64,000 bases of DNA from Bryobacterales bacterium (GTDB lineage Bacteria > Acidobacteriota > Terriglobia > Bryobacterales > UBA6623): contig OZ253444.1 in assembly GCA_965261065.1 (NCBI GenBank), positions 7,414,902 through 7,478,901 on the forward strand, in the 5' to 3' direction. The position numbers were made by a program, and so were the translations under genes. Positions 50,651 to 63,570 of this stretch are shown one piece after another. Each line of letters starts with the position of its first letter. Position 1 is the stretch's first letter. The notes under the pieces were generated by a model. It ran no database searches, was not told the DNA's origin, and saw only the letters and a list, made by a program, of their open reading frames with translations.

Positions 50651-51010
50651 AGCCGACTGCCTGCGATGACACCACTTTCCATGTGACGAGCATGGCGCGG
50701 TACAATTTGCCCGGCGGAAACTCGGATGAAGTGCCTGGGCTCCGGAGCCCAGGGCCCCAGCGCCAGTGAGAGGCTTTTTTTGTAGGTCACATCCAAGGGG
50801 GCTTTGTCAAGTTAACGACACGAAGGCGGTTTGGCCTGAAGATCGTCCGAGGTTTCTCCCCCTCAGTACGCACAGGTAGCCGTCTCCCAGTCCGAACAAA
50901 CGCTCATCGGCATCGCATACGCCTACGAACAGACGGCACACCACCGCCGCCCGCCGGAAGCCCTTCCCTAGGCTTCAAGAGTCCCGAGGGCGTCAACGTC
51001 GGATGGTACC

Positions 51011-51175
51011 GAGAAACGATTTCTCCCCGAAAGATGCGGGTTCAGAGCTTCGGCAACCGGTCACCTAGCAACCCCAAATGGTGTGCCCTCAGGCAGCTAG
51101 CGGGGATCTGGGCCGGGAGCAAGTGACATCGGTTGTTACCATTAGCAACCCCCACGGTGGTAGAATTGGACCGTC
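51011..51175 (+). promoter_or_regulatory. Conserved 5' module, copy A (palindrome GAGAAACGATTTCTC ... GCCCTCAGG ... TAGAAT)
   Basis: Aligns along its whole length with 59543-59708. Shared blocks: GAGAAACGATTTCTC, CAGAGCTTC, CCCAAATGG, GCCCTCAGG, CTAGCG.GGATCTGGGC, TCGGTTGTT, TAGAAT. Ends at the start codon. Confidence 0.75.
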
Positions 51176-59295: not shown

Positions 59296-59363
59296 GGGAG
59301 AGCGCCTGGCCCAGGCGGTCCAATAACTCCGCTTCTTTAACTGGGCCGCTAGCCAGTCATAAC

Positions 59364-59373
59364 GGGGGGGGGG
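59364..59373. repeat. G10 homopolymer (C10 on the minus strand) in the divergent intergenic region
   Basis: Counted directly. Lies upstream of the probable start of the enolase-like gene. Confidence 0.9.
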
Positions 59374-59542
59374 CGGGCGAAGCCACATCTCTGAGATGCC
59401 GACGACGCGGGCGTGTGGACAGACTGGTTCAACGCTGCGCCGTCAGTGCGGATTTGAGATCTATGGACGATCGGATACAGGTCCTCGTACAGCCCGCTCA
59501 CGCTAGAATCTTGGGCGCAAGCGTCACCGTCGGGTAGATACT

Positions 59543-59708
59543 GAGAAACGATTTCTCGCTGAACGATGCAGGGTGCAGAGCTTCCTCAACCAGGCACCGA
59601 CTGAACCCAAATGGAGCGCCCTCAGGTGACTAGCGAGGATCTGGGCGGGTAGCGAGTGGGTTCGGTTGTTCCCGCCATCTATTTGAATCGCGCTAGAATC
59701 GGCGTGTC
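59543..59708 (+). promoter_or_regulatory. Conserved 5' module, copy B, directly upstream of the Ser/Thr kinase gene
   Basis: See copy A. TAGAAT at 59694-59699, 9 nt before the TTG start at 59709. Confidence 0.75.
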
Positions 59709-62433
59709 TTGATCGGCCAAACCATCTCGCACTACAAGATCACCGAGAAGCTCGGTGAAGGCGGGATGGGTGTCGTCTATAAGGCCACCGACACCGAACT
59801 CAACCGGCCCGTTGCCCTCAAGTTTCTCGCGCCGCACCCGCTCCAAGATGAAGAAGGCCGCAAGAGGTTCCGGCGCGAAGCGCAGGCGGCTGCGGCGCTC
59901 GACCACCCTAACATCTGCACCGTTTACGAAATCGGTCAGGCCGATGATCAAAGCTTCATCGCCATGGCCTTCCTCGAGGGCCGGCCGCTGAGCAAAAAGA
60001 TTGGCGATGGTCCTCTGAAGCTTCCCGAGGCCCTCTCGATCGCGATCCAAATGGCTGAGGGCTTGGAAGCCGCGCACGAGAAAGGCATTGTCCATCGCGA
60101 CATCAAGCCCGACAACGTGATGTTGATGAAGGGTTCACGCGGGCTCGTGAAGTTGATGGACTTCGGGCTGGCGCAGCTTGCTGAAAGCTCAAAGCTGACC
60201 CGCGAGGGTACGACGTTAGGGACTCCGATCTACATGTCCCCTGAGCAGGCGCTCGGGGAACCGACCGATAGCCGCTCGGATGTCTGGGGACTCGGCGTCG
60301 TTCTCTACGAGATGGTGGCAGGGCGGCCACCGTTCCAAGGCGAGGTCGATCAAGCCGTCATCTATGCCATTGTCAACGAGCAGCACGGACCGCTGACCGC
60401 CCTGCGCACGGGAGTGCCAAAGGAGCTTGAACGGATCGCTGACAAGTGCCTGGCGAAAGATGCCGAGGAGCGCTACCAGCACGTCACCGATCTGCTTGTG
60501 GATCTGCAAGCCTGCCGCCGCGCTCTGGAACCCGGGACACCAAAGTCTGGCGCGAGGGCCACGCCTGTCAATCGAGCGACGCTCGCAGCCGCCGGCGCTG
60601 CGGTGGTTCTAGCGGGTCTGGGCTTAGCTTGGTGGCTCACGCGCTTCTCCCAGCCAGCCCCTCCCCCCCCCCCCCCCCCAATACAAACTGACCCAGATTA
60701 CACGCGACACGGGTTACACCGCCGATCCGGCTCTTTCGCCCGACGGCAAACTGCTGGCTTATGCTTCGGACCGCGACGGCGATGGGAACCTCGATATCTG
60801 GGTGCAGCAACTGACCGGCGGGGGAAATCCGGTCCGCCTGACTCAGCACGAAGCCGACGACTACGAGCCGTCATTCTCGCCCGACGGTAGCCAAATCGTC
60901 TTTATTTACGACCGCGATGATAGCGGGATTTACGTGGTTCCGGCGCTCGGCGGAAGTCCGACACGCATTGGACGTGGCGGGCGAGGGGAGAGGATATCGA
61001 CACCCTGTTTCTCTCCAGATGGGAAGTGGGTCAGTTATTCTCGACTTAGGAAAGATAGCGATTGGCAATACTTCATCCGTATTGAGATCGTCCCGGCTTC
61101 CGGCGGTCCACCGCAGGCCGTGGAGATGGGCCTGCCAATTGCCATGGCACCGATCTGGTCACCCGACGGACAGCATCTGATGTTTATAGGGAGCGAGGAG
61201 CCGCTTGTAAGTGGCAAGCAGATGAACCTCGACTGGTGGCTTGGGCCCGCCGCGGGAGGCGAGCCCGTTCGACTAGGAGCTAGAGGGCTATTCGAAGGAC
61301 GTGGAATCGTACCAGCGAGAACCACCGATGTCTTTTACAGGTATTTCCCGGCTCCTCGCGCTTGGCTAGCTGACGGTAACCGGGTAGTCTTCACTGGGGC
61401 GATCGTTGGTGCGGCCGCCAATCTGTGGCAGGTTCGAATCTCACCCAGCGACGCAAGACTTATCGGTGAGCCCCAGCGGCTCACCTCGGGAACAGGCGAG
61501 GAAGACCCTTCCGCCTCCCATGACGGCCGAATCGCGTTCGTTAACCCAGCGCGCGATGGGGATATCTGGAGCTTGCCGCTCAACGCCAATCGCGCCGAGG
61601 TGCGCGGAGAACCGGAGAGGGTCGTCTCAGGACTGAGCGACGAGCGGCACCCATCGATCTCGGATGATGGGCAAAAGCTTGCCTACGTGTCAGACCGCGC
61701 CGGTAATCTCGATATCTGGCTTCATGACCTGGAAACCGGCGAGGACACGCCTATAACGATCACTCTGGAGAGCGAGCACCGCGGAATGATTTCACCCGAC
61801 GGTTCGATGGTCTCGTTCGTCCGCCAGGAGCAAGACCAAGTCAACCTGTACGTGATGGACCTCGTGGAAAGGAGAGCGAAGCGCTTGGTCGAGGGCGTCG
61901 GCAGCGTGTTTGACTGGATGCCGGGAGGCAAACGAATCCTGTACTACACGCCTCCGCCTATACGCTGGAAGACCGTGGATGCGGAGACAGGTGATCAAGC
62001 CGATGTCGATCTCACACACCCCGAGTACCAACCGGCAGCGCTTCGATTCTCTCCCGATGATGAGTGGCTCGCGTTCACTCTTGCGGTCCAACCCGAATGG
62101 CTGCTCTTCATTTCCCATATCGAGCAGGGCCAACCAACCGCACACGACGGATGGATTCAGATCACCAAGGATTCGGTCGCTAGCCGCTCTTGGTGGTCAC
62201 CCGACGGAAACACACTCTACTTCACGGATCTTCGCGACGGGTTCCGCTGCCTCTATGCCCAGCCTTTGGAGCCTGCAACCAAGAAGCCGCAAGGGTCCCT
62301 GAAGTCAATACAGCACTTCCACGGGCGCGTTCGCCCCGTCGCTGGAGGGACCAGGACCAGCGATCGTCTTTATCTCCGGCTTAGCGAACGCAAAGCCAAC
62401 ATCTGGCTGGCCGAGCCGGTGGCGGCTCAGTAG
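59709..62433 (+). pseudogene. Ser/Thr protein kinase - TM - TolB-like (PD40) beta-propeller gene, frame-shifted in a C17 tract
   Basis: Kinase motifs GEGGMGVVYKA, VHRDIKPDNVML and MDFGLA. TM segment AAAGAAVVLAGLGLAWWL. The +1 frame continues from the tract as QYKLTQITRDTGYTADPALSPDGKLLAYASDRDGDGNLDIWVQQL... into ORF 60802-62433. Confidence 0.85.
60663..60679 (+). repeat. C17 homopolymeric tract inside the kinase-TolB gene
   Basis: Counted directly: CT followed by 17 C, then A. Encodes the poly-Pro linker just after the TM helix. Confidence 0.95.
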
Positions 62434-62476: not shown

Positions 62477-63570
62477 TTGACTCCCGCAAATTATTATGAC
62501 ACTTTTTGATAGTTTGGAGCATCTATATATGTATGGGCAACCCCAAAGGTGTGAAGCGGGATTTCAAGGCCCTGGAGAAGCGCCGTTTCGAAGCGATGCG
62601 GCTGCTCGACCAAGGCCACAATCAGTCCGAGACGGCAAGACGGCTGAAAGTCGCTCGCCAAACCGTCAGTGCGTGGCGGCGGCAATACCGCGAGCAGGGT
62701 GCGGCCGGACTCCGCCAGGCCGGGCGCGCCGGACGCAAGCCGCTCCTCGATGCCGCACAACGCGAACGCCTGACGTCGCTGTTGCTGGAAGGCCCGCAAG
62801 CCCACGGCTTCCCCACGCCCCTGTGGAGCTGTCCGCGGGTGGCTCGGCTGATCGGAGACGAGTTCGGGGTCGACTACCACGAAGGCCACGTCTGGAAGAT
62901 CCTGCGAGCGCTCGACTGGAGCCCGCAACGCCCGGTCGGAAAGGCGCGCGAGCGCAACGAAGAGCAGATCCGCACCTGGAAGCGCAAGACCTGGACGCGC
63001 ATTAAAAAAAAGCCCAAAACGAAGGCCGTACGCTCGTCTTCATCGACGAAAGCGGATTGAGTCAGAAGCCGCATCGCTGCCGCACCTGGGCGCCACGCGG
63101 CCAAACACCGGTGCTGCAGTTTAACTTCAATTGGGAGAAGCTTTCCGTCTCGGCGGGGCTGACGCTGCGTAACTTCTACTTTCGGCTCTATCCCGGTGCG
63201 ATCGGCAAAGAGCAAGTGATCGACTTTCTCAAGGCGTTGGTACGTCATATCGATCGGCCGCTGCTGATCGTCTGGGACCGGCTGCCTGCGCACCGTAGCC
63301 GCCTGGTGCAAGAGTTCATCCAACTCTCCGAAGGCCACATCGCAACCGAGTACTTGCCACCCTATGCGCCGGAGTTGAATCCGGTGGAATACATCTGGGC
63401 TTACTGGAAGCAGCACGAGTTGCCGAACGTCTGTCCGAAGGACTACGGCGAGCTGAACGAGCGGGTCCGCAAGGCACTCCGCCGCATGCACCGCAAACCG
63501 CGTTTGATCACGGCCTTCTGGAAACAGTCTTCTCTTTGCTTCGAGTGACGGGATATTATGCGGGACTCAA
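62477..63570 (+). mobile_element. IS630-family insertion sequence no. 2 (about 1094 bp)
   Basis: Inverted termini are TTGACTCCCGCAAATTAT and the reverse complement TTGAGTCCCGCATAATAT. TA is present on both flanks (62475-62476 and 63571-63572). Confidence 0.85.
62533..63548 (+). CDS. IS630-family transposase made from two frames (orfA 62533-63060, orfB to 63548) via a -1 shift at A AAA AAG
   Basis: orfA carries the HTH region. The -1 frame from the A8G run (63004-63012) reads KKAQNEGRTLVFIDESGLSQKPHRCRTWAPRGQTPV..., the canonical continuation of IS630 transposases. Confidence 0.8.

Follow-up and report, generated by a model that had tools for sequence, protein, structure and literature searches.

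Within a 64,000-nucleotide stretch of the genome of a Bryobacterales bacterium (contig OZ253444.1; the stretch as a whole is called the window here, and positions are counted from its first letter), nucleotides 59709-62433 form a single gene for a receptor-type Ser/Thr kinase, with a cytoplasmic kinase domain, one transmembrane (TM) helix and a periplasmic PD40 propeller, that is divided between two reading frames at a run of 17 C residues (C17). The interpretation favoured here, tentatively and at a little under an even chance, is that C17 is a recent and non-adaptive long run of C's for which neither the recorded length nor, as a consequence, the frame can be relied on. A length miscall in a long-read assembly and a real state of recent slippage are roughly equally probable, and, all readings taken together, it is about an even bet that most cells have the gene in frame. 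Since approximately 130 such tracts are present in the genome, and their lengths bear almost no relation to reading frame, the evidence points to a genome-wide process or artefact rather than to a switch that evolved for the kinase gene. A first-pass annotation, made from the letters of the window, had proposed a phase-variable switch and kept assembly error as the alternative. The frame-switching tract within one intact gene is borne out, but homologues without the tract and the near-random frames of the ~130 runs speak against the switch, and assembly error remains about as likely as a real frameshift.

The kinase gene and its C17 run

With C17 as recorded, the forward-strand open reading frame (ORF) at 59709-60890 (393 amino acids (aa), TTG start) encodes the Ser/Thr kinase, one TM helix, poly-Pro and then a tail of 70 out-of-frame codons that ends at 60890. 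Its Hanks-type protein kinase domain (residues 9-257; 59733-60479) matches Pfam Pkinase PF00069 with 185.7 bits against a cut-off of 31.7 (E=1.4e-54), and the catalytic motifs GEGGMGVV, VALK, HRDIKPDN, DFG and SPE can be read in the translation. The single predicted TM helix, ATLAAAGAAVVLAGLGLAWWLT (60576-60641), is a hydrophobic stretch directly before the tract, and homologues are likewise hydrophobic at this position. The 17 C, at 60663-60679 in the juxtamembrane linker, are preceded by cagccagcc cct and followed by aatacaaactg, and move the frame by +1. Downstream on the same strand the listed ORF is 60802-62433 (543 aa); the frame to which it belongs is open, with no internal stop, back into the tract, from 60664, where it starts PPPPPQYKLTQITRDTGYTADPALSPDGKLLAYASDRDG, and its 589 codons and stop (60664-62433) encode a PD40/TolB-like β-propeller sensor. 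Four stretches of this downstream piece match PD40 PF07676 with 177 bits (cut-off 20.9, E=3.4e-53), and DPPIV_N also matches it (57 bits, E=1.6e-15). Receptor kinases of the PknD type (PMC9392950) are built in the same way, with a cytoplasmic kinase domain of the Hanks family, a single TM helix and a β-propeller outside the cytoplasm.

Because the upstream codons start at positions divisible by 3 and the downstream codons one base later, removal of one C or addition of two joins the frames. The result with C16 or C19 is an ORF of 907 or 908 aa, and the C16 reading, at 907 aa, is free of further stops. This C16 read-through protein was used as an analysis device only, the two pieces being used otherwise. 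Reading across the break with a four-letter codon (CCTC or CCAA as Pro) was rejected, because both quadruplets also occur in frame at other places in the gene, which is then scrambled. Several claims of the first-pass annotation hold on these grounds: that the tract is the only lesion and that C16 or C19 repairs it, that the propeller frame is open back to the tract, and that C17 leaves the kinase with an out-of-frame tail. Its claim that the two ORFs are one gene holds as well, because the read-through protein aligns over 100% of its length with proteins of 905-910 aa that are encoded by single ORFs. The best of these has 84% identity, with no protein above that value in a search of 5.8 billion proteins. 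As 7665 of the 8000 scored candidates have E <= 0.001, the architecture is common to thousands of proteins, and in the sources the homologues are named 'serine/threonine protein kinase' or 'Tol biopolymer transport system component'.

Relatives are distinguished below as G001, the nearest congener, G003, another tract-rich congener, and the related assemblies G005, G002 and G004, with G000 denoting this genome. All three homologues compared as DNA, from G005, from G001 and from an unrelated metagenome-assembled genome (MAG), read GCTCCCCCTCAA at the tract site; GCC GCT CCC CCT CAA TAC AAA CTG there encodes Ala-Ala-Pro-Pro-Gln-Tyr-Lys-Leu, i.e. CCCCCTC in 3/3, where the window has CCT-C17-AA TAC AAA CTG, approximately 10 C's more. 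A paralogue from the same genome, compared as DNA, is likewise without the run, and the seven homologous proteins that were fetched read AAPPQY, AAVPQY or TPPQY at the site, with a poly-Pro run in none. Ala-Ala-(Pro/Val)-Pro stands at this point in each of the eight closest homologues. Because the homologues carry CCCCCTC without a run, C17 is, as judged by this comparison, a recent and lineage-specific expansion of ~10 C's and not a conserved contingency tract. No tract of differing length was found at the same site in relatives (three homologues as DNA, seven as protein), and the nearest congener has no strict orthologue of the gene. In comparison among relatives a contingency locus is recognised by a conserved tract of variable length, and this feature is lacking here, since the homologues have no tract at the site at all. 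Nor was a conserved slippery site for recoding found, the homologues being single ORFs without the run.

Selection on the gene was assessed as the ratio of nonsynonymous to synonymous divergence (dN/dS) in codon alignments with four intact homologues of which the DNA was retrieved, a frameshifted homologue from G005 being left out. The kinase half gives ~0.10 in all pairs (0.11 on the G000 branch), the kinase domain being compared with five homologues, and the PD40 half 0.4-0.6 in all pairs, those between two intact genes included. On the G000 terminal branch the PD40 value is 0.54, where intact homologues have 0.32-0.76. A pseudogene of long standing is excluded by this own-branch ratio, which is like that of intact homologues, together with the 589 stop-free codons. 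Because the PD40 frame is open and dN/dS shows no decay, any real inactivation is recent or reversible. As a separate matter, in each pair of homologues the dS of the kinase half (0.58-1.45) is 3-5 times that of the PD40 half (0.11-0.30), and dN/dS is 4-6 times higher in the PD40 half (~0.5) than in the kinase half (~0.1). This pattern suggests a sensor half that has been exchanged by recombination or is under unusual synonymous constraint, and that is fast-evolving at the protein level.

That the gene is dispensable is plausible. The genome has 11 full-length close paralogues of it, two of which are disrupted by other lesions, one (G000:C1:613539-616229) by a TCG-to-TAG nonsense codon at residue 350 (AYS*DRDG) and the other (G000:C1:7284964-7287617) by a frame change near two G6 runs. 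The 97-99% identity with G001 stops abruptly at ~56761, 3 kb upstream, with different genes beyond, and because synteny ends there the kinase gene is in a variable region; an enolase-like gene, the kinase gene and an insertion sequence (IS) sit in a segment that G001 lacks at the same position. In G005 the full-length homologue that is closest also has a frameshift, which lies at a G8 (contig C12) where the window reads GGGGAGAGG; the ORF of this homologue ends after 488 codons.

The course of events that would fit these comparisons starts from an ancestral CCC-CCT, two Pro codons after the TM helix, that recently grew into long poly-C. C17 would then be a by-product of a process that lengthens G/C runs, or of a length-calling problem, at ~130 sites in the genome, and would not be a conserved switch selected for the kinase gene. 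The recorded 17 puts the sensor out of frame, and because C17 is beyond the resolution of long-read consensus the dominant genotype may be either in frame (16 or 19) or out of frame. Homopolymer tracts as long as this are prone to slippage, and C17 should be no different; if it is real, its length would change at a high rate by slipped-strand mispairing. In-frame alleles would encode the full receptor with a juxtamembrane linker of six or seven Pro; from out-of-frame alleles would come a kinase anchored in the membrane that lacks the sensor and ends in 70 nonsense residues, and the propeller would stay unexported. 'Off' alleles would be expected to leak through RNA polymerase slippage on the run, and also through slippage of tRNA-Pro on CCC-C in the +1 direction, which is the one that C17 requires. 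There is no sign that selection has shaped switching for the kinase gene.

Long G/C runs across the genome

The genome is a single contig of 8,957,806 bp with 62.4% G+C. Scanning it gives counts of 23917, 4617, 829 and 96 for C4 to C7, and because each added base thus brings a 5- to 9-fold drop, C17, expected <1e-5 times per genome, is far beyond chance. The tract is therefore longer than chance allows and a change in its length switches the reading frame. Homopolymer counts fall geometrically to 7 nucleotides (nt) and then flatten, with 129 G/C runs of at least 9 nt, the longest being C23, and only two A/T runs of that size. Runs >10 nt number 70, a density of 0.78 per 100 kb; among 1,598 genera surveyed elsewhere, ~1% exceed 1 long homopolymer per 100 kb (PMC9262707). 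The kinase locus has one more long G/C run, a G10 at 59364-59373 (forward strand; genome 7474265-7474274), which is classed as non-coding and lies in the divergent region that separates the enolase-superfamily-like gene from the kinase gene. The division between G and C runs, 66:63, was uninformative about replication-strand asymmetry, the cumulative GC skew being too noisy for origin and terminus to be placed.

Coding signal beside the runs was called with a codon-usage classifier built for the analysis. Thirty-five runs have such signal on both sides on the same strand, and 26 of them are out of frame and nine in frame, close to the two thirds out of frame that random lengths predict. Frame changes are found at ~4% of G/C runs of 4-6 nt, equal to random positions, at 14% of 7-nt runs, at 52% of 8-nt runs and at 73% of those of 9 nt or more. 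Long runs are in non-coding positions in 45% of cases, as against ~14% of random positions and 20-26% of shorter G/C runs. Enrichment of tracts in the kinase-PD40 family was considered and rejected, with 3/129 tracts in or near loci matching at E<1e-10 (P=0.20).

For 17 sites there is orthologous sequence that can be used, mostly with flanks that are 92-99% identical, and at these the congeners carry shorter or interrupted runs. The counterparts of pure C9 to G14 runs include TCCCCCTC, TCCCCGCC, AGGAGGGGG, TCCCCCCCGCC, GGTGGGGGGAACGG, G7 and G8, and the difference in length is a multiple of three at seven of the 17 sites and otherwise at ten. Of the 7-8-nt runs that coincide with a frame change, most exceed their G001 counterpart by one base, and these runs too are 'purified'. 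Only a few of the G000 tract sites have a match in G003, and there G003 shows no long run. Related assemblies contain from 0 to 652 windows of C12, and some fragmented ones hold poly-C stretches of 40-88 nt. Within this one genome, a four-copy repeat has C6, C7, C8 and C13 at the same site, and a high-copy repeat has C6 in ~100 copies and C8 in one, with CCCTCC there in some others. At one site G9 is common to G000 and the independent assembly G002, where G001 has AGGAGGGGG. Two further sites have runs of differing length in three species, G7/G8/G9 in a GDSL/AlgJ-like gene (G000:C1:705519-705527) and G8/G7/G12 in a DUF4331 gene (G000:C1:836323-836334), and these two look more like contingency loci than the kinase tract does.

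Explanations for the frameshift

One alternative to the favoured reading is that the frameshift is purely technical, the gene being in frame (C16 or C19), or a short C-rich stretch having been inflated in basecalling, consensus or polishing; this is a credible explanation, to which distinctly less than an even chance is given. Because ~155 near-identical IS copies are resolved in a single 8.96-Mb contig, we infer that the assembly is long-read. For Nanopore R10.4, consensus is reliable only for homopolymers below ~11 nt (PMC9262707), and C17, if that inferred long-read platform is comparable, exceeds the reported limit of ~10 nt and lies outside the resolved range. Indel errors that split genes at homopolymers in single-contig genomes are familiar from long-read assemblies and from MAGs (Sereika et al. 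2022, PMC9262707; pipeline PMC12313526), where, as here, the frameshift rate rises with run length and the gene halves are intact. The share of frameshifts in this genome climbs smoothly with run length to the two thirds expected of random calls. Both halves of every affected gene are intact, as is known for the arginase, DUF4331 and amidase genes because Pfam domains span the joins, and the kinase-PD40 gene is without decay in dN/dS. In one IS family, 38 copies have A8 and 22 otherwise identical copies have A7, the division being unrelated to single-nucleotide polymorphism (SNP) haplotype and neither length fusing the two transposase frames. The rise of frameshifts with run length and this A7/A8 division fit an error model, but real slippage would fit them as well. 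Related assemblies are also frameshifted at G/C runs, at a G20 in the mutS of G003 and at the G8 of the G005 homologue where the window has GGGGAGAGG. Run abundance is patchy among them, and the 40-88-nt poly-C of the fragmented ones looks technical.

A purely technical origin has to contend with runs that exceed their homologues by up to 10-13 nt (+10 bases here, +13 in the G003 mutS) and that stand where the homologues have interrupted stretches; neither a ±1 miscall nor the usual consensus error of ±1-2 goes that far. Homopolymer errors in nanopore data are usually deletions, and most of the 7-8-nt cases are +1 relative to G001, the opposite direction. Short runs are called consistently, C6 being present in all but one of ~100 uninterrupted copies of the high-copy repeat. 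The G9 that is common to G000 and G002 implies that some runs are real, and the expansion is specific to G/C, as in Bordetella (PMC1891110). In addition, essential genes are spared, their tracts being in frame, and no core gene is broken.

These last points also belong to a group of observations that weigh against the favoured reading of a non-adaptive run of unreliable length. The in-frame runs include a C10 in rpsA (genome 1295736-1295745), three bases longer than in G001, and a G9 in a RodZ-like gene, both of which we take to be essential. Core housekeeping genes are absent from the ~45 homopolymer-linked frame breaks, of which the 7-8-nt set was judged by eye and not by Pfam. Because tracts in essential genes are in frame and no core gene is broken, recorded run lengths may be partly accurate and filtered by selection, which weakly favours real frameshifts over noise. 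The out-of-frame classes are those typical of contingency loci (HsdS, glycosyltransferases, O-acetyltransferase-like, outer-membrane and sensor proteins), and they keep the adaptive reading alive. Exact look-ups of both ORF products returned no record and no second assembly of the organism was found; the right flank, searched in metagenomes both with C8 attached and alone, returned nothing in either of two scans.

If the runs are both real and hypermutable, which is unlikely, some soil Bryobacterales would have a large set of fast-turnover poly-G/C contingency tracts, ~130 here and more in a congener, with stochastic switching of genes. Restriction-modification (R-M) specificity, polysaccharide-modifying enzymes, outer-membrane proteins and receptor kinases, the kinase of the window included, would be subject to it. 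The G20 in the G003 mutS would make the mutation rate itself switchable, and contingency-locus biology would be extended from host-adapted pathogens to free-living soil Acidobacteriota. Even without that further step, real runs would place the homopolymer load of a free-living soil bacterium near the level exceeded by ~1% of bacterial genera (0.78 vs 1 per 100 kb; PMC9262707), in gene classes that mirror the contingency loci of pathogens. If instead the 129 runs are artefacts, single-contig MAGs of this group contain false pseudogenes by the dozen, with mutS among those of the congener, and annotation pipelines should flag frame breaks at G/C runs of at least 8 nt. For the kinase gene by itself little is at stake, as it is one of ~11 close paralogues of a common acidobacterial type that has been mis-called or has recently slipped.

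More specific, and improbable, is an evolved contingency locus, in which the tract is kept by selection as a reversible switch between the full receptor and a sensor-less kinase and is part of a phase-variable set. The linker tolerates poly-Pro, both halves of the gene are intact, the excess of G/C runs is like that of known phase-variable species, and other tract genes belong to classic classes (the HsdS with its G16, the GT7 glycosyltransferase, DegT and the AlgJ-like GDSL enzyme), to which can be added the two sites with differing run lengths in three species. The first-pass annotation had stated that no receptor kinase is known to switch in this way, and overlooked bvgS of Bordetella pertussis, where C6/C7 phase variation is known and one extra C truncates the sensor kinase (Stibitz 1989 via Gogol et al. 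2007, PMC1891110). As in bvgS, the poly-C considered here is inside the coding region of a membrane sensor kinase and one extra C truncates the product. As in Bordetella more widely, for which 69 tracts are reported, 74% of them with differences between species (PMC1891110), there are many other G/C tracts in the genome that differ between close species. BvgS, however, is a histidine kinase, in contrast to the Hanks-type Ser/Thr kinase of the window; its run is of 6-7 nt and is at the same site in three sequenced Bordetella species, whereas that of the window is of 17 nt and is absent from homologues; and its switching was shown by experiment, whereas the kinase-PD40 gene is known from sequence alone.

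Against a selected switch, no homologue has the tract at the site, and the few sites matchable in tract-rich G003 show no long run there. The frames are statistically random, and with the gene in a variable, IS-flanked region and having many paralogues, two of them broken, neutral tolerance suffices. C17 would also probably switch too fast, and be too leaky, for a good heritable switch. The contingency tracts of pathogens are usually 8-14 nt long, occupy the same position from strain to strain and vary in length within a culture, whereas here most of the sites compared are without the tract in congeners, and the organism is of a free-living soil Bryobacterales lineage known from assembly only. 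There is nevertheless a likeness to the loci of Campylobacter, Neisseria, Haemophilus and Helicobacter (reviewed in PMC11868660; PMC5084427 is a Neisseria survey), which have an excess of long G/C runs both in coding sequence and upstream, and involve R-M specificity subunits, glycosyltransferases and surface proteins with many loci 'off' in any one sequence. For Acidobacteria themselves, only two incidental mentions of homopolymer phase variation were found in the literature.

No more probable is a plain, fixed pseudogene, the expansion having killed one redundant paralogue that is now decaying. Disruption of 2/11 close paralogues in other ways, by a TAG codon and by a frameshift near G6 runs, is in keeping with this, as are the lack of synteny with the congener and the IS directly after the gene. 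A downstream frame that is open for 589 codons and a stop in a genome of 62% G+C is not, nor is an own-branch dN/dS of 0.54, as in intact homologues and not ~1, with 0.11 for the kinase half, and any inactivation must be very recent. A natural frameshift in the same kind of gene is reportedly present in Mycobacterium bovis BCG, in pknD, the product of which has a propeller of the NHL and not of the PD40 type; that lesion reportedly differs in being a fixed insertion and not a long homopolymer.

Programmed recoding, with full-length protein made from C17 by obligatory transcriptional slippage or by +1 ribosomal frameshifting on CCC-C, as for IS transposases or dnaX, is very improbable: the +1 shift needed is the direction favoured at CCC-C proline codons and poly-Pro stalls, and long runs are said to make RNA polymerase slip, but the slippery site is in no homologue and is therefore not a conserved recoding signal, no Rfam family matched in 59300-60800, and no stimulatory structure was seen, though no search aimed at one was made. 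In insect endosymbionts, poly(A) frameshifts are reportedly rescued by transcriptional slippage, so that genes out of frame in DNA at long homopolymers, and otherwise conserved, are said to retain function through polymerase infidelity. By the same accounts, the endosymbiont runs consist of A/T, lie in reduced, AT-rich genomes and are shared among strains, in contrast to the G/C-specific, non-conserved runs of this 9-Mb genome of 62% G+C.

Other affected genes, mismatch repair and neighbouring repeats

The genes with out-of-frame runs are of diverse function. In HsdS, the specificity subunit of a type I R-M system (Pfam Methylase_S), the run is a G16 at G000:C1:2321476-2321491; genes of this class are phase-variable in several pathogens. 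Four other PD40 proteins are affected, two of them being kinase-PD40 fusions, as is a response-regulator/HisKA hybrid. Enzymes are represented by the GDSL acylhydrolase-like protein (the AlgJ-like GDSL enzyme), a DegT aminotransferase, a GT7 glycosyltransferase, an Amidase_2 enzyme, a matrixin-like peptidase and an arginase-family enzyme in which the Pfam arginase match (E=4.5e-75) extends across the join. A multihaem cytochrome, an outer-membrane barrel protein, the DUF4331 protein and a DUF6531 protein complete the set.

Loss of mismatch repair was considered as a cause of the runs, and does not explain those of G000 because its mutS and mutL are intact. G003 has more G/C runs than any other congener, and the G20 mentioned above (G003:C2:353128-353147) divides its mutS between two frames; at that site G000 reads GGTGGGC, 13 fewer bases, and its mutS is intact. 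The split in G003 could be a lesion or a switch of mutator type, or else a repair gene may have been struck by the same artefact. G004 has many runs and yet has mutS and mutL intact, and there is no general correlation of runs with repair loss.

An IS630-like element at 62477-63570 starts 44 nt after the stop codon of the kinase-PD40 gene. Its two transposase frames meet at an A8 (63004-63011), and there are ~65 copies of it in the genome; two more IS families have A8 sites, and one of those families is the one with 38 A8 and 22 A7 copies. A pile-up of A8/T8 in the run counts had been considered as a possible basecaller ceiling, and was rejected as such when the runs proved to be the slippery sites of these three families.

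Upstream of the kinase start, a stretch of ~300 nt (59400-59720) is repeated at seven other places in the genome with 70-95% identity, one copy being at ~50990-51140 of the window, and many more are present in G001 and G003. It has no match in Rfam, and may be a shared promoter or leader.

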